This document shows, piece by piece, positions 2,006 through 31,875 of a stretch of 36,044 nt of DNA. A program made the position numbers and the translations under genes. Under the pieces are notes generated by a model. That model saw only the letters and a list, made by a program, of their open reading frames with translations. It was not told the DNA's origin and did no database searches. Origin of the DNA: an uncultured archaeon (GTDB taxonomy: Archaea > Asgardarchaeota > Lokiarchaeia > Sigyniarchaeales > SOKP01); contig CAZGJX010000036.1 of assembly GCA_964525635.1 (NCBI GenBank), forward strand, positions 1-36,044, written 5' to 3'. Position 1 is the stretch's first letter. Each line of letters opens with the position of its first letter.

Positions 2006-2653
2006 CTAATTTAATGAAATAAATTATCTGTTATAAAGTTCAGCTATATAATATAACAGAGATATCTTTTTATTCATCAATTTAAGCTTAAATGATATTA
2101 AATTAGACGGGGAATAATTATTAAATGCAAATTGTATTATCAATTTGAATTAATAAAATTCAAATTTAAATCCTATATTTGACTAATTTTATAAAAGAAT
2201 GATCCTTTATTAAATATTTCAACCCGCTTTGGCAATAAACTCTCATTATCCGCTAAGAGCACCTATTCCTCATTTCTATCCGAGTGAAAATGGCAATCAC
2301 GTGCTTTTTTTGTCGCCCCAATTGAATGATAGGGCAATAATTCATTATCCATGAATCCAGCAATTTAAAAGACACTCCTCTTTTTTGAGCGTTATAATAG
2401 AATCTTATTCATGATAGGAAATAAATATAAAAAATTGGTTGAAATATGGCGAGGAATTTTAATCGTCATGATGAGCGGTCGGGTAAGGCAGGGCTGTTGC
2501 CAGTCAGTTCTCCCCTTGGACCCGTGCGTGCGGATCTCCTCGCACACGGCTCGAGCAGAGAGTTCCAATCACGTCACCATGTACCTTTTTACTGTTCTGC
2601 GTCAACGCTTCCCAGATATTTAGGTCAAGCAATAAAATATAGTAGATAGATGG

Positions 2654-4111
2654 TCATATCATCCTACATCTAATTTCCTCGTATCTTCTTCTTTCCCAAT
2701 ATTCTTTAACCTTAGGATTGGGATTTAAAGGGGATTTATCCCCAACTATAAATCTATACTTCAGTCTCTTCACGTCATTCGTTTTTGTTAATGTATAACC
2801 TGTTTCCGCAACCCCAAATGTCCATTTTCGTGTATCTATCCTCTCATAGTATCTATTGAATATCCAATACTTTCCTTTTCCCTTATGTATTCTTATTGCC
2901 CATCTCCATATTAATTTCCAGATCTCATGGTCTACTCTTGAAAATGTCTTGTATGCGTCAGAAAACCTATAATACATAGGCCATCCCCTAATAATTGGAT
3001 TTAGTTTAGCTATAAATTTTCCCTGTTCCATCTGTTTATGAGACCAAATAGTAAATCTCATATGGTTTAAAAATTTCTTTACTCGTTCCTTTTGCGGTTT
3101 AACATAGAGTTTTCTTCGTGGTTGTTCAATCGTAAAGCCTAAGAAATTAAAGCCTTGTCTTTTATCTGTTATTCGTGTTTTCTCCCGTTTTAAAGTTATA
3201 CCTCTTTCTCTTAGAAAATGTGCTAATCTCGGAATTATTTGTCTCATAGCTTCTCTTGTTCTTGTCATTATGATTAAGTCATCTGCATAAATAACGTCAG
3301 TTCCATCTTTTCCAAGTGTCTGTTGTAATCCATGTAAGGCTATATTAGCTAAAATCGGACTTATAGGACTTCCCTGTATTATTCCCTTAAGGGTACGATA
3401 TTTCTTTCCATTATCAATTATCCCTGCCTTTAAGCATCTTTGTAATACCTTACGAAATACTAGTATTTTATCTAAAATTATACTATGTTCTATGTTATCA
3501 AAGAATTTATTGATATCCGCATCTAAAATAACCCTATCTCCTCTCAGTAATTCTAAGTATATTTTCTGTATTTCGTCCTGTGTATTTCTGCCTGGGCGAA
3601 AACCGAAGATATCAGGATGTAATAATGCTTCCCACTTTGCCGTAAGGGCAAAAGCAATTATTGTTGCCATTATTCTGTCCTTGATTGTCATTAATCCCAA
3701 AGGTCGCCTCTCTAATTTCTTTTTATGATTTCTTCTGTGTTTATCTATCATTGCCCTCCAGTTTTCCTGTGTTTTAGGAATATATTTCCTTAATACTGGT
3801 TGGAATTTCCATGTTCTATAATCAAATGTTTCTTTACTTAATTCCATTCTTTCTTTAGATGTTAAATATACCTTTCTTTTTACACCAGGAGTAGTTCGCC
3901 CCTTGTTCTTCTGGGTTATGATATAAATCGCGAGCAATTTCGCAGATTCAGACCGAACCAAAAGTTTCATAAGGTTATGTGCTCCCTTCTTATCGCCTTT
4001 CTTGGATAGTCTGTAGATCCTACCTTGAAGTCGCCTTACATTCCGTTCCAGTTGGGAGAAATTAATCTTATCCCACCAGTCGTCCTGTCTATAGATTTGT
4101 TCAATTTTCAT
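2654..4111 (-). CDS. ltrA: Group II intron reverse transcriptase/maturase with no HNH endonuclease domain
   Basis: RT0 W..INF..LERNVRRLQGRIY; RPLGLMTIKDR; FGFRPGR; LDADINKFFD; QGSPISPILAN; YADD; GFNFLGF; maturase X domain LNPIIRGW; ORF ends before any HNH motif. Confidence 0.95.
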   Translation of the reverse strand: MKIEQIYRQDDWWDKINFSQLERNVRRLQGRIYRLSKKGDKKGAHNLMKLLVRSESAKLLAIYIITQKNKGRTTPGVKRKVYLTSKERMELSKETFDYRTWKFQPVLRKYIPKTQENWRAMIDKHRRNHKKKLERRPLGLMTIKDRIMATIIAFALTAKWEALLHPDIFGFRPGRNTQDEIQKIYLELLRGDRVILDADINKFFDNIEHSIILDKILVFRKVLQRCLKAGIIDNGKKYRTLKGIIQGSPISPILANIALHGLQQTLGKDGTDVIYADDLIIMTRTREAMRQIIPRLAHFLRERGITLKREKTRITDKRQGFNFLGFTIEQPRRKLYVKPQKERVKKFLNHMRFTIWSHKQMEQGKFIAKLNPIIRGWPMYYRFSDAYKTFSRVDHEIWKLIWRWAIRIHKGKGKYWIFNRYYERIDTRKWTFGVAETGYTLTKTNDVKRLKYRFIVGDKSPLNPNPKVKEYWERRRYEEIRCRMI

Positions 4112-4571
4112 TGTCTAACTCCTCATATAGTTATGGTTTCTTCATGGTACTTTCTCAGTCTCCACCACCAAGAAGTCAGCAGTCTTTCAACTTGGAGTAT
4201 CTCCCATATCTCATCGAAATCCTCTCAATATAGGCTCCTATCCATACTATTACTATATGGCATTCGCTTCCTCTTAGTTCCTCTGCCCGCTAAACCATCC
4301 TCCTCACTTACGCTTGGGATACCATTCCATTAAAATTTGAAGAGCTGGAACTTTTCCATCTTCTCTACTTTTCCTTTTAAAGTATGGAGTTTCAAGAGTC
4401 AGTGGGAGTATAACTCCCCCTACTCAGAAGAACCGGACATGCGACTTTCACCGCATCCGGCTCAAGTTTCAAGTGCTCAACATCATGTTACCATATCTCC
4501 TTTGAGAAATCTTTTCAGAATATCTCCCGGGAACTTCATGTCACCATTTCACACCCTATAGGAGAAAACGA

Positions 4572-4823
4572 TCATTCATTCAAGATATATCTTCTTGAAA
4601 ATGACCGTGCAAGCAATTTCTGATATCTCTTTACTTTCATAAAATTACCTGCTTGAGCCTCTCGGAAAATCTTTTGTTGGATCTTTTCGACTTGATGCTT
4701 GACCTGAGACCAATTTACTTGATCCCAGTCAATCTGCACCCGTTGGTTGGTGCGCATAGAATTCTCTGTCTTACGCCTTCCTTCCATTAGAATTCTCCTC
4801 CAATTCTTTTCCGTTGAAGTCAT
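4572..4823 (-). pseudogene. N-terminal remnant (RT0 region) of a group II intron RT inside intron 3
   Basis: IDWDQVNWSQVKHQVEKIQQKIFRE...VKRYQKLLARS resembles the N-terminus of the 2654-4111 RT; the rest of the RT is missing. Confidence 0.85.
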
Positions 4824-5275
4824 GGGTAGTCAGCCACTTTTCAGTTGGGTATATACCCTATCCTTCGCATTACCGAAGGCATTCGCTTTTACCCAATCTC
4901 TGCCTCCCTACCTTAGTATGGAAGCTTTACAGAGTTCCTTTGTAAAGACAATTACATGACCTTTAGGAGCCTGCTATACGCCGGATGTTATTCTTTCAGA
5001 AAGATGTATAACCCGATAATATACACCCTAACATCATCGCCTTACTTTGGTCAAGCTGCGTATCAATTCCCTTTCGCAGCCCTGGTATCACGACGTTTCA
5101 AGCACAGGTTCATTTTCGTTCTCCATGGGTCTTATTTTTTTTTTTTTTTACTAGCCCTATCTGTTCGGGGAATTAACAGAATCGGTACATTGCTGTGCAT
5201 GCTTTGGAGCCCATACCTTTTGAATACGAGTCCGCACAACTGTCACAAGCGGTCTGATTCCGCTGCCCTTACGGG

Positions 5276-6774
5276 CAATGTCATTAAGTTAAGCTATCAC
5301 TTTTTTTTTATATTTGTAAAACCAAAGTTTCTGACTACTCGTAGGTTTTACTCGGGGAGTCATGCGATCCTTGCGAATAATTACGGGATTCTTCTTGAAA
5401 AGAAATGTTAATTCATCAAGCAAGTCCATCAATGAGCAGTTTTTGTTAAAGAAGAGCTCGACAATACGGTTCAAGAGAACACAAAGACTAATAGAATGGT
5501 TTACCTTGTAAAAATGTTTGCGATTAGCGGTTCGACATTCAATTTCTATTTCTTCTTCAGCTCTTTTGGAAAGAAGGCTTTCTAACGTGGTCAAGAAGAC
5601 AATACCATGGAAATCCTGCAATATTGAGTTCAAAAGCTTGGCACTAAAACGTTGTAATTCAAAAATATTCTTAAGTCTATCAAAAAAGGTCTCAACACAC
5701 CATCTTAACCTGTAAATCTCTCCAATATCCGAAGCAGGAAACTCCTGGGAATCCAATAAGTTAGTAATGAGTATCTCAACATCTCCATTGGGCAAAACTA
5801 AGCGAATGAAGCGAACCCTTACTTCCTCTAAAAGTCCTTTCTGGCGAATAAATTCCTTCTGCCTGGAGGATTGCTCAAGTTTAATAAGTATGTCATCTGT
5901 GATACCTCCATCAACTGGATCGTTCTTCATTGCGCTTGAAAGCTTTCTTGCCGCCGAGAAACTATTTTTAGATGCCCGAATGACGAAGTTGATAGCATTA
6001 GAAGCAAGAAATGAAATTACCGAAAAATCACCATATGCCCGATCCAAGGTAATAATATCTCCCTCCTTTAAATAATTGGAATGCTCCTTGAAAAGGAATT
6101 TCTTTTCGGCTGTTTTTTCTTTTAATGATGCGCTGATGGCAAGATCATTAAGAATGTCATATAAACAGCTCATTAACCCTTGAACTTTCCCCTTCTCATC
6201 ATACTGGTTTACCTGGATACTAAATCTTGCTCTCGTGTCGGGGGTATCTGGAAGATTAATGGTCGAGCCGTCTAATGCTAATAACCTCCGGTTATTTCAG
6301 AGTTTTACACAATCAAGCTCCTTTCTAAAAGAATAAAACGTTTCATTTGCAATGTCATTTATTTCCTTGAAAAATTCAGGTTTCAGTTTTTCTCTTGCTT
6401 GACAATATGCACTTGCAGTTGGTACCTCCCTTATCTTGCCCAGTTCGCTGAAGAACTTGTTAAGGGCATTTTGAAATGGGAGTTTTTGTCCTCGAAGGAT
6501 CAAAATTGCCAATTGTTTGAGGGGTAAGAGGCGTTTTCTTTGAAAATATTGTGGTGATGTTTTGAATTTATTACTTAAATTATCCTGATCTAATTGATTT
6601 TTTAGTTTCTTAACGATTAAAGCCATAATTTCCTTTTTTCTCATGATGAGATGAAGGATCGAAGTGATTTAAATCATTCGCTTTTACTTGAAGAGGATGG
6701 AAATGTCCTAAAAAAATACAGAAAATAAAAATAAAGATTTACAGAAATATAAAATCCTTAACTTAATGACATTG
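5276..6774 (-). mobile_element. IS4-family insertion sequence (1499 bp)
   Basis: Perfect 18-bp TIR CAATGTCATTAAGTTAAG (5276-5293 / 6757-6774); 10-bp TSD CCCTTACGGG (5266-5275 / 6775-6784). Confidence 0.92.
5289..6644 (-). pseudogene. IS4-family DDE transposase with a nonsense codon near 6297 and a frameshift near 6185
   Basis: Reading through gives TASAYCQAREKL, RLLALDGST, DRAY, YRLRWCVETFF..LK; split into ORFs 6297-6644 and 5289-6173. Confidence 0.88.
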
Positions 6775-6943
6775 CCCTTACGGGATTCCTTACAGAGGCT
6801 TTGCTCTGCCGCATATTGGGTTTACCATGTTCCGTGTGTTTGACTTTAAACAATACTCTTAGATACTTGCTCTCTCACGACTGAACTACGGACGGAAAAG
6901 CAATAAGACGTCATTATCGCTTACTGTCAGCATTGCCTTTTGG

Positions 6944-7938
6944 GTCGAGTAGGTCAGGGCTGTTGCCAGCCCTTTCCCCTCTTGGAACCACACGTGCGAC
7001 TTTCATCGCATGTGGCTCGAGCCTGAAATATCCCACACGTCACCGTGTCCTTCTTCGGAACTCGTGTCACCACTATTCCGTCAAGGAATCCCGTCACCGT
7101 TTTCCTTTGAAAAGGATTTTGGGGTTTAAAGAATCCCATCTTCTCAATTACTCTCCTTAGCAATTTAAAGAACTTATTGAATGGCGAGTTCAATACTTCC
7201 TTCTCTTCTAATCCATCGGATTAGGTCAATGGCATCATTATTGTCTACCTTCTCCTTTTCTGATTGTCGGGCATATATTTGATGCACCCACGACAATACA
7301 ATGGTCATAAGTCTTGAGAAAATCTTTTTTTTTTTTCTCTTTCAGACCTGCTGGATGTCTGCATCCTTTCAGATTGGGTATCCTCCACTATAAATTATTC
7401 TTTCATTATAGTAGCCCCTATCCACTCAATTACAGAGTGGCTTTCGCTTTTTCCAGCATCCTATATCCGCTAAGCCTTCCCTCTCCCTTACGGTTGAGAT
7501 ACCATTCCATTTTAATGTATGGGGCTTATCGGACTTACCATGTTCCGTATAATTAACTTTCACCAACTCCCTTAGGTACCCAATCTCCCCCGACTGTTCT
7601 ACGGTTGGAAAGACATTAAGCCATGAATAATGTCTACTAACAGTTTTGCTATTTTAGCCAGGTGTATCAATGCTTTTCACCTGCACTGATTCACGAGGTT
7701 TATCATGGGTTCACTTTCGTTTACCATAGAGGTCATGACTAGCCCACAGTAAGAGTGCATTCTCCCCTGTTGGTTCATTGTCTCCAGAGCTTCATACCCA
7801 GTCGTTACCAACCACGCATGTCCGGATAGTCACACTTATCCAACTTAAGGTCGGTTTCTTGAGAGCTTATCTATTGACAAGCATATCATTTGGTAATACT
7901 CAAGGTTCCGCATTCAATCATACAGCTTCATGTCACAC
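6944..7938 (-). mobile_element. Group II intron 2, ORF-less (995 nt), nested in domain I of intron 1
   Basis: 5' end GTGTGACATGAAG at 7938; domain V GAGCCACATGCGATGAAAGTCGCACGTGTGGTTC (7018-6985); ends CCTACTCGAC at 6944; EBS1 CATGGC (7625-7620, in an AGACATTA/TAATGTCT stem-loop) is the perfect complement of the flanking GCCATG (7944-7939). Confidence 0.9.
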
Positions 7939-8543
7939 CATGGCATATCAATGCATTTCGCCACTGCGGATTTACGTGGTTTACTCGCAAGTTCATTCTC
8001 TTTACCATAAGGATCTTGGGTTAGCCTGCAGCCGGAGTGCATTCTCCTCTGTCAGTACATTTTCCAACGCTTAGTACTCTGTCATTACCAACAGCGCACC
8101 CATGGACAACCACACCTATCCGTTTTAGGATCGTCTTCTTGGATGTTTATTTACTAATAAACCTACCATCTTGGTAATTTCCAAGTTTACGCATTCAAAT
8201 ACACGACTTCATGTCGCACGACACCAAATCCTCAATCATGAATGATTATTAGTAAATTTTAATTAATTTCATATTTAAATATTTTTTCATCATCTCCATC
8301 ATAACATCCCCAAAATAGTGAAAAAATAAACTAAGCCAGATTAATAACAAAAAAAATAATTTTATTAGTGAAAATACTTAATATGTAGTTAACCAACATA
8401 TAATTTTAATTACTAAAAAATAATTCAAGGAACAAAAAGGGGTGATTAATAAGACTGGAAGTATGATTTTAAGAATATAATGAAAAAAAAATTTTCTTGA
8501 AGTTTTTTAGTAAATTTATATACTATAAGTGGGTGTTTTAAAC

Positions 8544-9015: not shown

Positions 9016-9052
9016 ATTTCAATCTTCTTTCTGAAGCTATTTTCTATGTTGT
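9016..9052 (-). CRISPR. Solo CRISPR-like repeat
   Basis: ACAACATAGAAAATAGCTTCAGAAAGAAGATTGAAAT on the - strand; matches copies at 16616, 16689, 22353 and 23197; ends in ATTGAAAN. Confidence 0.65.
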
Positions 9053-13061: not shown

Positions 13062-14939
13062 ATGGTAAAAATTGATATTAATAAGATTGAACTTGTTTGG
13101 CCTGCAAAATTCGATGATAAAGGAAAAATAAAAAATATTGATCGTTTATATCTTCCTTTTCAAATAATCGAGAGAATAGATGAGGCACAATCCATTCGTG
13201 AAGCAAAAATAGATGGGGTTCAAAAAACACTTTTTGATTATTGGAATATTAATGAAAATGTAATGGATAAAGAATGGAAAAATAAGTTGATCTGGGGAGA
13301 CAATAAAATTGTAATGAGTTCGTTGCTAGAAAAATTTGCAGGTAAAATTAATCTTATTTACATTGATCCTCCTTTTACTACTGGTGCCGATATTAAATTA
13401 AAAATAAAATTAGGCACAAATAATGAAGAAACAGATAAAGAGCATTCTATTTTAGAAGAGAAAGCATATAGAGATACATGGGGATCGGGTTTCGATTTTT
13501 ATTTAAGATATATGTATGAGAGATTAGTTTTAATGAGAGAGCTCTTAGCAGAAAATGGTTCCATTTATATTCATCTGGATTGGCATGTTGGACATTATAT
13601 TAAATTAATCATGGACGAAATCTTTGGATATGATAATTTTAGAAATGAGATTGTATGGAGATATGGTAAAATGGCTTCTTCTACAAGAAAATTTTTATCA
13701 AATCATGATATTGTTTTATTTTATTCCAAGACTGATAAATTCATTTTTAATCCTCAATTTTTAAAACTCGATAAACCAATCAGACGTTTAGCCAGAGAAG
13801 TAAAAGATGGAAGATTAGTTAATAAAAAAGATAAAAATGGAAAATTAGTATATATTAATAAAGACATTAAAATTATTGATGATGTATGGGATGATATCCC
13901 CATTGTTATGCACGCAAGTCCACAGTTTTTAGATTTTTCTACTCAAAAACCAGAAAATCTTTTAAAAAGGATTATTCTAACTTCTTCTAATCCAGAAGAT
14001 CTTGTTGCTGATTTTTTTTGTGGCTCAGGGACTACATTAGCTGTGGCCGAAAAATTAAATAGAAAATGGATCGGATGCGATCTTTCTCGATATTCAATTC
14101 ATCTTACAAGAAAAAGGTTGCAAGAAATTAAAAACTCAAAGGATCTTATTAAAGAAAAATCTACATATAACAATAAAGTAAAACCTTTCGAAATTATCAA
14201 CCTTGGAAAATATGAAAGACAATTATGGCAAGATAATAGCTTTAGTGGAAAAGATAAACAAACTATATTATATGAATATCTTGCATTTATTTTGAAATTA
14301 TATGGTGCTAAACCTATCATGGGATTTACTTATATTCATGGTAAGAAAGGAAAAGCGTTAATTCATATTGGTTCAGTAAATTCACCCGTTACGATTGAGG
14401 AAATATTATCTAGTATTAAAGAGACTATTCAAGCGGGAACTAATGAACTACACATTCTCGGTTGGGAGTGGGAAATGGGTCTACATGACCTAATCGAAAA
14501 AGAAGCAACAAAGGAAGGAATAAAGTTGGTTTTAAAATTGATATCAAATGAAGTAATAGAAGAAGAGGCGGTTAGAAAAGGAGATGTAAGATTTTTTGAT
14601 TTAGCTTATTTAAAAACAAACACTCATATAAATGGAAAAACTGTTTCTATTGAATTGACGGATTTTGTAATTCCTAATATAGATTTAATTCCTAAAGATG
14701 TACGAGAGAAAATAACAAAATGGTCTGATTATATCGATTATTGGGCTGTTGATTTTAACTTTAAGGAGGATACATTTGTGAATCAATGGACCTCATATCG
14801 AACTAAGAAGAATAGAGTACTTAAATTAATATCTGAATCATATACATATAATGAAAATGGAACATATAAAATTTTAGTTAAGGTAATCGATATATTTGGG
14901 AATGATACATCTCAAGTTTTTGAAATCGAAGTGAAATAA
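13062..14939 (+). CDS. mod: Type III restriction-modification Mod subunit (beta-class DNA amino-methyltransferase)
   Basis: LIWGDN; IYIDPPF; STQKPENLL; ADFFCGSGTT; C-terminal KVIDIFGND. Confidence 0.9.
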   Translation: MVKIDINKIELVWPAKFDDKGKIKNIDRLYLPFQIIERIDEAQSIREAKIDGVQKTLFDYWNINENVMDKEWKNKLIWGDNKIVMSSLLEKFAGKINLIYIDPPFTTGADIKLKIKLGTNNEETDKEHSILEEKAYRDTWGSGFDFYLRYMYERLVLMRELLAENGSIYIHLDWHVGHYIKLIMDEIFGYDNFRNEIVWRYGKMASSTRKFLSNHDIVLFYSKTDKFIFNPQFLKLDKPIRRLAREVKDGRLVNKKDKNGKLVYINKDIKIIDDVWDDIPIVMHASPQFLDFSTQKPENLLKRIILTSSNPEDLVADFFCGSGTTLAVAEKLNRKWIGCDLSRYSIHLTRKRLQEIKNSKDLIKEKSTYNNKVKPFEIINLGKYERQLWQDNSFSGKDKQTILYEYLAFILKLYGAKPIMGFTYIHGKKGKALIHIGSVNSPVTIEEILSSIKETIQAGTNELHILGWEWEMGLHDLIEKEATKEGIKLVLKLISNEVIEEEAVRKGDVRFFDLAYLKTNTHINGKTVSIELTDFVIPNIDLIPKDVREKITKWSDYIDYWAVDFNFKEDTFVNQWTSYRTKKNRVLKLISESYTYNENGTYKILVKVIDIFGNDTSQVFEIEVK

Positions 14940-23313: not shown

Positions 23314-26037
23314 ATGATAAATAATGAAATATTAGCTAGACCTGGACAATCCCTTCAGGAACATATAAATCAAGTATTTCAAATTTCAAATGATAGATTA
23401 AATTTACTAAAATTAAATATAGAATCTTTTCTAAACGAATTAACCAGATTTTCTTTAGGAATAATATCATATACTCATGATATAGGAAAAGCAACAAAAT
23501 ACTTTCAGATATGGATTAAATCAGAAAAAAATAAATCCCTAGATTCTAAAATACTGAAAAACCATAGTCTTTTTTCATCAATTTTTACTATTGCTACTTT
23601 CTATGTATTAGACAGTTATATAAATGATGATTTTAAAAGTAAATTTATTCAATCCAGTAATTATTCATATATATATAATCATTTTGCTTATATTAGTCAG
23701 CTAATTGTGAGAAGTCATCATAGCAATCTTAAAAATTTATGTACAGTAAATGTACTTGATTTTAATGAAGAAATTATTTTAAGACATAAAAAAAGATTAA
23801 AAAATAGTTGTAAAGAGTTTATAATTAAACTATATAATGAAATAATACTCCCAAATATTTTTAAAAACAATTCTATAATAATTACCAAAAATTTTCAAAA
23901 AAGTTATGAGAATTTTAACCAAATTACAAAGGATATCTTTAGTACTGTAGAAAGGATATTAAATGACCAAAAATTCCGTTTTAAGGAATTATATCATAAT
24001 TTATATATGTATCAAGGAAAAATTCTGGGAATATCTAAATATCTCTCATACAAGATTTTTTTTTTAGGAAAACTAATGCATTCAATTTTACTTGAATCGG
24101 ATAAAATGAACTCCACAATAGGGATAGGATTTTCTATCTCAAATAATTTAACTACGAATAGATTTAATGAAATTCTTAAAAATTATCTTATTAAAAAAAA
24201 ATATCTCATTCCAAATGAAACATTTAAAGATAATTTTATTGACATTAATAAAAAAAGAAGATATATATTAAATAAAGTAAACAATATGGCAGAGAAAATT
24301 TTAGAAAACACAAGCCTTATAAGTTTGCTTTCTGTTCCTACTGGATTCGGAAAAACTTTTTCAGGATTATGTTATGCAAGTAGTATAAAGTCTCCAAGAT
24401 CTAATTTTGAATGTAATAATTTTTTTCAAATTAATCCCAAAATAATATATGCACTTCCTTTCCTTAGTATTATAGAACAAGTTGAGTTAACCATTAAACA
24501 ATTTTTAGGGATTATTAATAAAGGGTATAAAAAAATTGAAAGTACATCTTTCTTAACTCACCATCACTTAACTGAACCTATTTTTAATTTAGAAAATAAT
24601 AGAGAATATGATGAATCTACTGCTGAACTCTTTATAAAAAGTTGGAACTCACAATATATCCTTTCAACTTTTAATCAGTTATTTAATGCTCTATTCAAAA
24701 CAGATAAAAATTCAGCAATAAAATTTTCAAAGATAATTAATTTTACTTGGATCTTAGATGAGATACAATCAATTCCTCTAAAATATTGGAAGATTTTAGA
24801 AGAATCCTTATTAATTATGAATAATTTATTTTTTGTTAACATTTTAATGATGTCAGCAACTCTTCCGAAGATATTGGATATCAATAAATTAAAAAATAAT
24901 AGCACCCCTCAAAACAAAAAAAAAATAATTGAAATCATAACTGATGAAGATTACAAAAGGATATTAAATGGAATTAATAGAGTAAGACTTGAATATCATG
25001 GAACTATTGATTTCTGTTCATTTCTAAAGAATTTAACAAACACTATTCAAGGTTATGTAAAAAAAAAGATAAATTTATTGATTGTATTAAATACAAGAAG
25101 ATCAGCTCAATACACATTTAATTATATAAAAGATTATGTAATACAACAAAAGTCAATAGAAAATAAAGTTCATATAGAATTTCTTGCAGCTACTCAAACA
25201 CCCAAACGTAAATCTAAAATAATTGAAAAAATTAAAAATTTAATTGAAAGTAATACAGATTCTGTATTTAAAAAGAAGAACAAGGAATTAATAATTTTAA
25301 TTTCAACTCAATGTATTGAAGCAGGTATAGATATTGATTTTGATATTGTAATAAGAGATTTTGCACCTTTAGATAGTATTATCCAAGTTGCTGGAAGATG
25401 TAACCGCAATAATAGAGATGATATTTCAATGGGAATTGTTAAAATATATAAGATAAAAGATGATCAAAATAAAAATAAAAGAAATTTTTGCCAATATATA
25501 TATGATTCTCACTTACTTAGATTAACTGAAGAAATTTTTCAAGAAACTCGAAAGAAAGATTCTTTTCCATATCTTTACGAAGAGAAGGAGATTTATACTA
25601 TTGTGAATAAATATTATGAAAATATCGATAATTTCTTTAAAGATGGAAAAATGGAAGAAGAAAGATTAAAATATCAAAGTTATATGTTAAAATTTGAATA
25701 TTTAAATCTTTCAATGGATTTTAATTTAATATCTAATATGAATCCATACAGTATATTTATAGAAGAAGACAAAGAAGCTATTGAAATAATCAAAAAATAT
25801 AAATCATTACAGTTATCTTTTAAGAATAGTAAAAATACACAAGAGTTTCCAATAAAAGAATATAATAAATTATTATGGGTTAAAAAAGCTATACAGAAAT
25901 ATATTATAACAACATATCTAAGTGAAGATGAAAAAATAAAGCTAAAAAATATTGATAAGTTTGGAGATTTATATATTCTATCGTATAAGGATTTAAAAAA
26001 CTTTTATTCAAATGAAATAGGTTTTTATATAAATTAA
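23314..26037 (+). CDS. cas3: CRISPR-associated helicase/nuclease Cas3 (HD + SF2)
   Basis: SLQEH, HDIGK, SHH, VPTGFGKT, DEIQ, SAT, STQCIEAGIDIDF, QVAGRCNR. Confidence 0.95.
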   Translation: MINNEILARPGQSLQEHINQVFQISNDRLNLLKLNIESFLNELTRFSLGIISYTHDIGKATKYFQIWIKSEKNKSLDSKILKNHSLFSSIFTIATFYVLDSYINDDFKSKFIQSSNYSYIYNHFAYISQLIVRSHHSNLKNLCTVNVLDFNEEIILRHKKRLKNSCKEFIIKLYNEIILPNIFKNNSIIITKNFQKSYENFNQITKDIFSTVERILNDQKFRFKELYHNLYMYQGKILGISKYLSYKIFFLGKLMHSILLESDKMNSTIGIGFSISNNLTTNRFNEILKNYLIKKKYLIPNETFKDNFIDINKKRRYILNKVNNMAEKILENTSLISLLSVPTGFGKTFSGLCYASSIKSPRSNFECNNFFQINPKIIYALPFLSIIEQVELTIKQFLGIINKGYKKIESTSFLTHHHLTEPIFNLENNREYDESTAELFIKSWNSQYILSTFNQLFNALFKTDKNSAIKFSKIINFTWILDEIQSIPLKYWKILEESLLIMNNLFFVNILMMSATLPKILDINKLKNNSTPQNKKKIIEIITDEDYKRILNGINRVRLEYHGTIDFCSFLKNLTNTIQGYVKKKINLLIVLNTRRSAQYTFNYIKDYVIQQKSIENKVHIEFLAATQTPKRKSKIIEKIKNLIESNTDSVFKKKNKELIILISTQCIEAGIDIDFDIVIRDFAPLDSIIQVAGRCNRNNRDDISMGIVKIYKIKDDQNKNKRNFCQYIYDSHLLRLTEEIFQETRKKDSFPYLYEEKEIYTIVNKYYENIDNFFKDGKMEEERLKYQSYMLKFEYLNLSMDFNLISNMNPYSIFIEEDKEAIEIIKKYKSLQLSFKNSKNTQEFPIKEYNKLLWVKKAIQKYIITTYLSEDEKIKLKNIDKFGDLYILSYKDLKNFYSNEIGFYIN

Positions 26038-28770: not shown

Positions 28771-31700
28771 TTAAGAATCTATTTTTTGTTGTAATGTCAT
28801 TATATTTTTAAGTTGATCAGTACTCATCTCTGTTAGCCAGCTCTCACCAGTTCCAATTATACTCTCGGCTAACTCCTTTTTATTTTCAATCATCTCATCT
28901 ATTTTTTCCTCAAGTGTCCCCTCACATATAAATTTATAAACTATCACATTCTTGGTCTGTCCAATGCGATATGCGCGATCTGTTGCTTGATTCTCTACAG
29001 AGGGATTCCACCAACGGTCAAAATGGAAAACATGACTTGCTTGGGTAAGATTCAAGCCAACGCCCCCTGCTTTCAGAGAAAGCACAAATATTTTTGGACC
29101 ATTCATTTCCGAAAATTTTAAAATCATTTTATCTCTCAACTTTTGGGATAATCCTCCATGCAAATAGAAGATTTCAGCATTAATAGTTTCTTGGAGATAT
29201 TTATGAATAATTGCACCCATTTTAGCAAACTGTGTAAATATTAAAGCATTATGTCCTTCAGAAACAATTTCCTCTAGCATTTCTACTAAACGGTTTAATT
29301 TTCCTGATCTTCGATGTACTTCAGAACCATCACCTAAAAAGTGTACAGGATGATTGCATATTTGTTTCAATCTGGTGAGAGCCGAGAGTACAAGACCTTT
29401 TCTCTTGATACCAGTTTCATCATCTATTTTATGCAATATATCATCTACCACTGCCTTGTAAAGAGTAACTTGTTCTCTTGTTAGGTTGCAATAGACATTT
29501 GATTCGATCTTTTTAGGTAAGTCTTTTATAATAGTAGGGTCATTTTTGAGTCGGCGGAGCACGAAGGGTTGAACGATGGTTTTAAGGTGTTGTTTTGCTG
29601 TTATATCATTATATCGCTCGATGGGAAGAGAGAACTTTTTATGGAAATTGGTGATTGAATCCAAATAACCTGGATTTAGAAAATCCATTATTGACCAAAG
29701 TTCCGATAATCTATTCTCGACTGGTGTTCCTGTTAAAGCAACCCGATAATTTGCCTTAAGTTTTCGAACAGCTTGAGATTGTTTAGTGTAATAATTCTTA
29801 ATGTTCTGCGCTTCATCCAATATAAGGGAATTCCATTCTATTTGAGAGAATTTATCTTCTTCCCTATGTATAAGTCCATAAGTGGTTATTATAAGATCAT
29901 AATTTTTCACATTAGTTATGAATTCTTTTAGATCCATTCGATTTGTACCATGATGGATGAATACATCAAATGAAGGGGCAAACCGATTCGATTCCCTTTT
30001 CCAATTTCCAAGTATTGAGGTTGGACAGACTAATAAGTTTGTTGCTTTCCCATTCTCTTCTCTATCCTTTAACAAGAGCACGAGTAATTGGATCGTCTTA
30101 CCAAGCCCCATGTCATCAGCAAGACATGCCCCAAGACCGTATTGACGTAAAAACCACAACCAAGCAAATCCTTTTTTTTGATATGGACGCAATTTACCTT
30201 CAAATTTAACTGGTTGGTTTTGCATTACTATTTTTGTTTTACCCAATATTTGGTTGAAAATTTTGTTCAAATTTTCTGTTGCACTATAACTCATAATTGG
30301 AAGTTCTTGATCCCTCTCATTAACTTTAAATGTCAATCTTAATGCTTTAGAGAGTTCTAATCCTCCAGAATGGCTTTTTTTGAAATAGTTCAAAGCTTTA
30401 TCGATGTCTGATTTTTTTAATTCGATCCATTCACCCCGAAATTGTACGAGAGGTACTTTCAATTCTGCTAATTTCTCAAGATCTTCCTTGCTAATGGGAG
30501 TGTCTCCTATTGCAACTTGCCAGTCGTATTGAATAACATTGTTAAAATTTAAAATACCCATACCAGTTTTAGGTACTTGCTTAAATTTTAGATTTAACTT
30601 TAATCCTAAAGACGCTTTCATCCCATTGTCTTTCCACCATGGGGGTATGAGAACTCCAAAACCACTTTCTTTGAATAGTATTGCTGATTCTTTTAGAAAA
30701 TGATATGCTTCATTTATTGAAAGTTTGGCTTCTGTTGGAGTAATTGAATTCAAACTAATTTCGATAGGGGGAAAGATGCGACAAGCAGATCCCAAGTCTT
30801 TTAACAATTTTTCTTGGGGATGGTTGAATTTGCGGTTTAGAAAGTTTAGTGTTGCTTTTTTTTCTCCCCAGACCTTTTCGGTCGGCACGAGTAAACTTGG
30901 ATCATCAATGGCTTGCAGGAAATATCGTAAAATCCAATGACCCAAAGAACCATCATTCTCATCAGGAGCCTCTATGCGAAAACAAGTCCTAAATGAAGCT
31001 TTCTCCTCCTCTTTAATTTGATCCTCCCAGCGAGTTATTGATTTCAATAATTTATCAGACTCTGTAAATGAACATTGTAAAGACTGCCCCGTTAATAAAG
31101 ATTTTAACCAATAATTTGCGAGAGAGGTTTTTTTTAAATTTATCCTTGAATTATTTAGCCAATTCTGAATATTACAATTAATACAAGAATTAATATAATG
31201 CTGTAAGAGAAATTTTTTGGACTTAATGATTTTGTTTTCTTGAAGAAAAGCAATACATACTGTTGGCATTGATTTAATTAATATAGAAATGCGATTTTTA
31301 TTATCATCTTTAGTAATTACACTACTCCATTTCGCATATCTGTTTTTACTATGATTATCCAATTCTATAATATTTGGAATAAATCTTTGTTTAGATAATA
31401 ATTCTAAAGTATACTTGGAGACTTGGCTCCAGAAAATTAAATCATTACCCAGATGGGTATTGAGATTATTATCTGTTGTTTCAGAAAGGTAGAAGAGAAA
31501 AAAAAATACCTCCTTTAACGGTATTTTAAAACCATTTAGAACCCAAGGACGTAAATCTATTGACTCTATTTGTTTATTGGGAACATTTCTAGCTAATATA
31601 TAATTTGAAGCTTGTGGAATATTTGAGATGGTAGGAAATAAGAAAGAGATATTATCAGAACTTAATTTTTTACTAATATCTATTATGTTATTTGTTTGTA

Positions 31701-31875
31701 ACAATTCTATCCCCTTCAAGAGATCAAATTGATTAGCCATAAATGGATGAAGAGGAATTTTAGGCATCCTTCCTCTACGTTTTACCATATTAGATAATAG
31801 ATTCTCACCCCATATAAAGAAGTTTCCATTATATCCATTATCAGAAGGTATCCACGTTCCATGTAATATGATCAT
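28771..31875 (-). CDS. SNF2-family helicase/translocase
   Basis: LRPYQ, LADDMGLGKT, DEAQ, TGTPVENRLSELWS, SLKAGGVGLNL, QATDRAYRIGQ. Confidence 0.95.
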   Translation of the reverse strand: MIILHGTWIPSDNGYNGNFFIWGENLLSNMVKRRGRMPKIPLHPFMANQFDLLKGIELLQTNNIIDISKKLSSDNISFLFPTISNIPQASNYILARNVPNKQIESIDLRPWVLNGFKIPLKEVFFFLFYLSETTDNNLNTHLGNDLIFWSQVSKYTLELLSKQRFIPNIIELDNHSKNRYAKWSSVITKDDNKNRISILIKSMPTVCIAFLQENKIIKSKKFLLQHYINSCINCNIQNWLNNSRINLKKTSLANYWLKSLLTGQSLQCSFTESDKLLKSITRWEDQIKEEEKASFRTCFRIEAPDENDGSLGHWILRYFLQAIDDPSLLVPTEKVWGEKKATLNFLNRKFNHPQEKLLKDLGSACRIFPPIEISLNSITPTEAKLSINEAYHFLKESAILFKESGFGVLIPPWWKDNGMKASLGLKLNLKFKQVPKTGMGILNFNNVIQYDWQVAIGDTPISKEDLEKLAELKVPLVQFRGEWIELKKSDIDKALNYFKKSHSGGLELSKALRLTFKVNERDQELPIMSYSATENLNKIFNQILGKTKIVMQNQPVKFEGKLRPYQKKGFAWLWFLRQYGLGACLADDMGLGKTIQLLVLLLKDREENGKATNLLVCPTSILGNWKRESNRFAPSFDVFIHHGTNRMDLKEFITNVKNYDLIITTYGLIHREEDKFSQIEWNSLILDEAQNIKNYYTKQSQAVRKLKANYRVALTGTPVENRLSELWSIMDFLNPGYLDSITNFHKKFSLPIERYNDITAKQHLKTIVQPFVLRRLKNDPTIIKDLPKKIESNVYCNLTREQVTLYKAVVDDILHKIDDETGIKRKGLVLSALTRLKQICNHPVHFLGDGSEVHRRSGKLNRLVEMLEEIVSEGHNALIFTQFAKMGAIIHKYLQETINAEIFYLHGGLSQKLRDKMILKFSEMNGPKIFVLSLKAGGVGLNLTQASHVFHFDRWWNPSVENQATDRAYRIGQTKNVIVYKFICEGTLEEKIDEMIENKKELAESIIGTGESWLTEMSTDQLKNIMTLQQKIDS

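Follow-up and report, generated by a model that had tools for sequence, protein, structure and literature searches.

A pile of group II introns and an IS4 element in a Lokiarchaeia genome, with a candidate lineage of introns ending in G

The locus and its elements

We have analysed a window of 36,044 nucleotides, a whole contig (C36; names of this kind, like those beginning with L, are our own handles) of assembly G000, which comprises 4.45 Mb in 245 contigs at 26.8% GC. The host is a Lokiarchaeia-type Asgard archaeon (Promethearchaeota) to whose genome C36 belongs; sequence of this genome is present in salt-marsh metagenome runs, with no RNA run among those listed as containing it, and the transporter gene adjoining the locus of interest is 90% identical in a same-genus genome. 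The locus itself is a nest of mobile elements where a group II intron (A) contains two others (B and C), the last of them interrupted by an insertion sequence (IS) of the IS4 family. An original prediction, made from the letters of the window, had described a nested complex of three separate group II introns with an IS4 in an Asgard-like host, and as an observation it was confirmed, with the anatomy exact to the base. The features are listed below, with domains I to VI of each intron abbreviated as DI to DVI (EBS, exon-binding site; RT, reverse transcriptase; ORF, open reading frame; TIR, terminal inverted repeat).

2478..8219, minus strand: intron A, outer group IIB intron (putatively CL-type) with ends GUGCG...AC; its three stretches, 8219-7939, 6943-6815 and 4392-2478, add up to 2325 nt
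2654..4111, minus strand: RT/maturase ORF of A, 485 aa, with RVT_N, RVT_1 (YADD) and GIIM, without endonuclease
2478..2552, minus strand: DV (2552-2519) and DVI of A; catalytic-triad G.U changed to G.G at 2521
6906..6914, minus strand: EBS1 loop of A; EBS1 6912-6907 pairs 6/6 with 8225-8220; EBS3 6872; EBS2 7971-7964
6944..7938, minus strand: intron B, 995 nt, ORF-less, in DI of A; GUGUG...AC; EBS1 7625-7620, EBS2 7690-7683, EBS3 7585
4393..6814, minus strand: intron C, 913 nt without the IS; AUGCG...UUG; EBS1 5017-5012, EBS2 5087-5080, EBS3 4976, DV 4463-4430
4572..4823, minus strand: N-terminal RT remnant of C (RVT_N), the remaining ORF being deleted
5276..6774, minus strand: IS4 family element, subgroup IS4, 1499 bp; 18-bp TIRs 6774-6757 and 5293-5276; transposase 6644-5289
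6775..6784, minus strand: 10-bp target-site duplication, second copy 5275-5266, corresponding to the Ia hairpin of intron C
8220..8294, minus strand: 5' exon of A, remnant of a DUF5615 PIN-like gene with two stops

Three DV/DVI sets were found with the Rfam model RF00029 on the minus strand, at 6944-7020 (58.4 bits), 4392-4465 (53.7) and 2478-2554 (38.4, that of A and just under the gathering score of 40), and Rfam additionally gives one DI match in the window. Boundary analysis supplied the three 5' ends, 8219 GUGCG (A), 7938 GUGUG (B) and 6814 AUGCG (C), so that both counts agree with the prediction. When B and C are taken out, the 2325 nt of A are colinear with an uninterrupted paralog on contig C73, gap-free at both junctions, which fixes the boundaries of the two inner introns; the junctions 8220|2477, 7939|6943 and 6815|4392 are by this colinearity exactly those proposed. 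Each intron also matches its own flanks, as had been claimed: EBS1, EBS2 and EBS3 together pair at 14/15 positions in A, 15/15 in B and 12/15 in C, against 5-10/15 at the other junctions (the EBS2 register was picked by eye from the alignment), and the fraction of random window sites reaching the own-junction scores was 0 for A, 0 for B and 0.0014 for C.

In all three introns EBS1 lies in a 9-nt loop and follows the delta base, DV has the AGC triad, and DVI contains a bulged branch A, in each case at position -7 as usual. Folding of alignments (8 A-family and 11 C-family sequences) gave a IIB structure for DI-DIII, with compensatory changes and the AARC epsilon' motif; single-sequence folding z-scores were weak for A and C (about -1.6) and reached -6.7 for B. 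A and B have the canonical boundaries GUGYG...AY with a Watson-Crick gamma-gamma' pair (both end in AC, with G as gamma), and B, with its intact DV/DVI and full exon pairing, looks competent to splice. C looks intact apart from the IS.

The same alignment folding bore out the predicted placement of the inserts. Intron B occupies a conserved small DI hairpin of A, between its EBS2 and EBS1, and intron C lies inside the DII basal helix, which is paired in 8/8 sequences with compensatory changes, while the IS4 sits in the Ia hairpin of DI of C, a hairpin whose loop length varies among relatives. These are twintrons in the usual sense, introns within an intron with boundaries of their own. Both inner introns are indeed nested in A as predicted, but they are not one inside the other: B and C are siblings side by side, with an intron depth of two and an element depth of three.

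The array is not a misassembly. The genome was built from short reads, and the run contigs do break where other genomic copies share sequence (4044-4095 and 6471-6495, and only there), as might be argued for repeated introns joined into a chimera. Against a chimera, the three introns are mutually just 59-71% identical, the EBS set of the inserted intron fits each junction, and single Logan contigs span every one of the six intron junctions and the two ends of the IS in runs X1 and X2 (possible source samples), most of them likewise in X3 (a run not so marked); the listed X1 contig pieces show zero differences from the window. A chimera, which the original prediction had named as its possible undoing, is thereby excluded as a practical matter, and we give it next to no credence, regarding it as already largely refuted. 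Contig joints skipping A, B, C or the IS, that is, insert-free alleles, were not seen in four runs, which is evidence neither way since contigs drop rare variants. No empty site was recovered from the same-genus genome, with which the transporter gene is common but the surroundings of the insertion are not.

Intron A and its host gene

The RT of A is, as predicted, the sole intact YADD RT in the window. It is 73% identical (amino acids) to that of the C73 paralog. Its reading frame is open; four of its private changes are non-conservative and fall at columns that do not vary in seven relatives, two of them in a conserved N-terminal motif (relatives have 0-3). In DV, G.G replaces the G.U pair of the catalytic triad, and the distal stem of DV and the upper stem of DVI contain further mismatches; this damage is absent from seven A-family relatives and from B. 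The ribozyme of A is probably weakened or dead. The DV of the outer intron of a second twintron, on contig C58, has the same change of G.U to G.G, absent from its own relatives; the change is common to both invaded outer introns.

The RT gene of A, located downstream of both inserts, carries a purine-rich, ribosome-binding-like sequence of its own and could therefore be expressed with no splicing at all. The 5' exon is 77% identical over 74 nt to an intact DUF5615 paralog on contig C59, and no intact host ORF crosses the insertion site; the host gene being a pseudogene, splicing is under no selection. Scans for sigma-70 promoters and terminators stayed at chance level, with models that do not fit an archaeal host. 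Pfam RT domains are present in the intron RTs, and TIGR04416 scores 322.9 for the inner RT of C58, above the cut-off of 300, and 262 for that of A. An RT tree, made without curated class references, puts them near cyanobacterial and HNH-bearing intron-encoded proteins (IEPs).

The C73 paralog (L008:1213-3524) is an intact A-family intron in sense orientation in an apparent transposase gene. Another A-family intron (L038, 73% amino acid identity to the RT of A) is on a 3.5-kb contig of a Patescibacteria bin, probably misbinned, or else a transfer.

Origins of the inner introns and supply of reverse transcriptase

That a single RT is shared by the three introns is true only inside the window. 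Genome-wide there are six DV/DVI sets and four intact intron RTs (that of A, that of the C73 paralog and two on C58), one of them of the lineage of C itself, and this part of the original prediction failed. C58 is a second twintron, in which a full-length C-type intron with a 500-aa RT lies in DI of an intron with a 499-aa RT (L007:2885-7420).

The RT remnant of C is 62.5% identical to the inner RT of C58 vs 33% to the RT of A, and every region of the ribozyme shows 73-77% identity to the C58 inner intron, which is the closest or tied-closest relative in 5/6 regions, as compared with 50-63% to A outside the 24-nt DII. The RT tree (a quick version of the search) separates the A family (support 100) from the C clade (99-100). 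Intron C is, on these identities, a deletion derivative of the lineage of the C58 inner intron, and its helper would most likely be the RT of its own lineage on C58. An expansion of homopolymer A in DI of C, 15 nt on the intron strand (5135-5149), is absent from relatives; a similar tract of 12 nt stands at the start of DIV of B (7325-7336).

Intron B has a different history. Its ribozyme is of the A family in DI, DII and DV-VI and nearer the C58 outer type in DIII, and no RT remnant was found in its DIV. A relative from another genus, likewise without an ORF and itself sitting 15 nt inside another intron, is 76% identical over 847 nt including the non-coding DIV. As this relative shares the DIV and B has no trace of an RT, B would come from a lineage that spreads without an RT of its own, with three proteins as possible helpers, the RTs of A, of the C73 paralog and of the C58 outer intron.

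Nesting is common among relatives of this host (L119, L132, L137, L151, L172 and L184). In L151, L129 and L184 the insertion site of an intron is the DV/DVI junction of another one or a point just past it.

The IS4 element

The element has the features of subgroup IS4 (1400-1650 bp, AATR end motif, YREK, 10-13 bp duplication): it measures 1499 bp, has perfect 18-bp TIRs, the YREK residues and a 10-bp target-site duplication, and matches NF033592 above the cut-off. Length, end motif, YREK, duplication and target-arm preference are shared with the subgroup as described (PMC2266710); the archaeal host and the inactivated transposase are particular to this copy. The transposase, far from intact, has a TGA at 6299-6297 where 7/7 homologs have Trp, and the TGA is also in the run contigs. 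Readthrough was considered and rejected as unlikely, this being a single change at a Trp codon. The assembly holds no full-length second copy, and no transposase match at E<=1e-30 was found in 160 other genomes of the class. Nine termini of a related IS were found at contig ends, beside similar short hairpin-like targets, so the element could be mobilised in trans. The nonsense stop, the damage in DV of A and the non-canonical ends of C had escaped the original prediction.

Introns with a candidate G end

Intron C, AUGCG...UUG, would work like a IIB intron yet breaks the canonical boundary rule that A and B follow, and this holds clade-wide. Its relatives were gathered by RT similarity and not by their ends. 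The 3' ends of the 15 members in which EBS3 and the 3' end are readable are UG in 13, AG in one and U in one; the first base is A in five and G in nine. EBS3 varies among them (U, G or A) and can form a Watson-Crick pair with the base that follows the terminal G in 12 of the 15, with one wobble and two mismatches (permutation p = 0.00066), and if the terminal G is counted as exon the pairing falls to 1/15. Two further introns fit the EBS3 pattern, including a sister lineage ending in ACG at two sites. Uninterrupted homologs of three targets (that of the window, C58 and L172) lack the terminal G. In L182, an antisense insertion, removal from the first base to the terminal G restores a 328-aa methyltransferase frame (123 or 131 aa when shifted by +/-1), and in L187, a sense insertion, a 185-aa frame (145 or 90 aa). 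Uninterrupted homologs, EBS3 pairing and restored frames together would place the terminal G inside the intron. With an A as gamma in J2/3, no Watson-Crick gamma-gamma' pair of the usual kind is available to the last base. Introns of the A family and of the C58 outer family have AC as their last two bases.

The obvious alternative is that these introns splice at the preceding U, the G being exon or added during insertion. It has in its favour that nearly every member has U as its penultimate base, which could face the gamma A, so that a normal gamma-gamma' pair would result one base earlier. However, the uninterrupted alleles at three sites are without the G, EBS3 pairs with the base after it, and the host frames need it out; we find this alternative decidedly improbable. 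Some points do count against a G end. The 15 members are related, which makes the permutation p optimistic although the target sites differ; L127 and L179 break the EBS3 rule; and L128 and L184 end in U. Weighing all this, we slightly favour the reading that Lokiarchaeia carry an undescribed mobile group II lineage in which UG replaces the AY 3' end, A is tolerated as first base and splicing would proceed without a Watson-Crick gamma-gamma' pair.

A search that used the C-type end pattern itself as query, and therefore gives a distribution and not a frequency, found it in 6/400 Asgard genomes, all of the order of the window; it was not found in viral contigs. Departures from the canonical 3' end are known: RmInt1 ends in CC (PMC4238363), and B.a.I2 has alternative 3' sites and class B introns domain VII extensions (PMC4424553, PMC9294222), none of them described as purine-ending. 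RmInt1 and B.a.I2 share with the C clade the departure from AY and the help of pairing between EBS3 and its intron-binding site (IBS3) in defining the 3' site. They differ in that they keep the gamma-gamma' pair at the last base, where the C clade has G opposite the gamma A, and the C clade keeps normal spacing from branch to end and often starts with A. In the literature that we searched, which lay outside Dai & Zimmerly 2003, Simon et al. 2008 and the bacterial group II intron database, G-terminated group II introns are not described, and the novelty of the G end is probable but not established.

A few introns deserve separate mention. One C-clade member (L183:3475-5710) has the boundaries GU...AG, spliceosomal-like, and in L172 a C-type intron lies in DI of another C-type intron, just past its EBS3. 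L134, L121 and L137, from three genera and of another family, form an ORF-less lineage with apparent UCGUG...GGC ends and EBS1 fitting the 5' flanks, a second non-canonical boundary pair.

Proposed history of the array

We consider it likely that the array as a whole is a pile-up of selfish elements at a neutral site of a Lokiarchaeia genome. In the order that we propose, A would have retrohomed into the DUF5615 gene, which has since decayed. B and C, whose boundaries and pairings are as given above, would then each have reverse-spliced into conserved ribozyme sequence of A by means of their own EBS1, EBS2 and EBS3. As neither can make an RT, each would depend on one in trans, that of the own lineage on C58 most likely for C, and for B either the C58 outer RT or one of the A family (A or C73). 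The IS4, with its preference for short hairpins, entered the peripheral Ia loop of C and carries a nonsense mutation. Because B and C interrupt conserved helices of A, they would have to be gone before it could fold, and on this count the predicted order, inner introns first, would stand. As read from DNA, introns of the RT clade of C begin with G or A and have as last base a G, 6 nt past the branch A, their 3' splice site presumably being fixed by EBS3-IBS3 without a Watson-Crick gamma-gamma' pair.

The original prediction saw instead the three introns as a live unit, with B and C using the RT of A and splicing in order so that A can splice and move. The only intact RT in the window is that of A, all three introns have kept EBS/IBS pairing to their flanks, DI, DII and DV-VI of B are of the A family, and IEPs of relaxed specificity are known to serve ORF-less introns in trans (PMC2882425), so that the RT of A might act even on C. 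This last point weighs against the pile-up as we have drawn it, and so do two others. The modest ribozyme identities (C ca. 75% to the C58 inner intron, B 70-71% to A and C73) mean that the RTs that moved B and C may be lost or unassembled, and the totals of private changes in A (RT 9, ribozyme 14) are within the range of relatives, which leaves the case for its decay resting on few positions. A live unit is nevertheless unlikely, with three other intact RTs in the genome, one of them from the clade of C, with G.G in place of the catalytic G.U pair of A, and with a host gene that puts splicing under no selection.

The opposite alternative, that the entire array is a dead fossil in which nothing splices or moves any more, is possible though doubtful. 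It would account for the nonsense transposase, the deleted RT of C and damaged DV of A, as well as for one EBS1 mismatch in C and the decayed host gene. It fits less well with the canonical ends, intact DV/DVI and perfect exon pairing of B, with the family structure kept in DI-DIII and DV-VI of C, or with the open 485-codon RT frame of A. The interpretation offered originally is thus supported in part, and a pile-up at a neutral site is the reading that we prefer.

Comparison with known systems

Arrays in which as many as five group II introns are nested are known from Methanosarcina acetivorans (PMC4424553; also PMC2882425). They share with the present one an archaeal host, repeated site-specific homing into introns and flanking exons without coding function, and have been described as a perpetual homing site. 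With two intron levels here and an IS4 added, an exceptional depth of nesting, as had been suggested, is not supported. The targets here are ribozyme domains I and II of the outer intron; in M. acetivorans homing reportedly, to judge from the title of Dai & Zimmerly 2003, goes into intron ORFs.

In the Trichodesmium twintron T.e.I7/T.e.I8, for which sequential splicing was shown in vivo (PMC4649490), the inner intron likewise lies within the outer domain I. Both IEPs are encoded there and the host gene is functional, whereas our inner introns are without an IEP and the host gene has decayed. Thermosynechococcus elongatus (TeI3/TeI4 and TeI4g::ISEL2f; PMC2882425) offers ORF-less, trans-mobilised introns in ORF-containing relatives and an IS in an intron; the inner introns there are near-identical recent copies at the ORF start, and here they are of different lineages. 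Asgard group II introns have been reported from their RTs (PMC9887622; bioRxiv 10.1101/2024.12.10.627823). The nest is an Asgard example of an already known phenomenon and, contrary to what had been proposed, does not itself bear on the origin of the spliceosome.

Elsewhere on the contig

A repeat of ca. 30-40 nt resembling a degenerate CRISPR repeat occurs in the window at 9016, 16616, 16689, 22389 (reverse) and 23197, two copies being 73 nt apart, and a Cas3 HD-helicase gene is nearby at 23314-26037. DNA methyltransferase and SNF2 helicase genes are at 13062-14939 and 28771-31875. Together with Cas3 these suggest a defence-rich contig.

Meaning of a candidate G-terminated lineage

The Watson-Crick gamma-gamma' pair with its terminal pyrimidine is a group II feature without a reported spliceosomal counterpart, and spliceosomal introns end in G (PMC4424553). 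The C-type ends, confined to the order of the window among the 400 Asgard genomes, are not to be read as an ancestral state; the G-ending lineage is probably derived, an analogy to the spliceosome and not its ancestor. Boundary calling based on AY would misplace introns of this type. If the G end is true, the lineage would be a natural ribozyme model for the recognition of a G-terminated 3' splice site and, being naturally G-ending and repeatedly inserted, would permit a direct in vitro or structural test of a group II core that accepts such a site.

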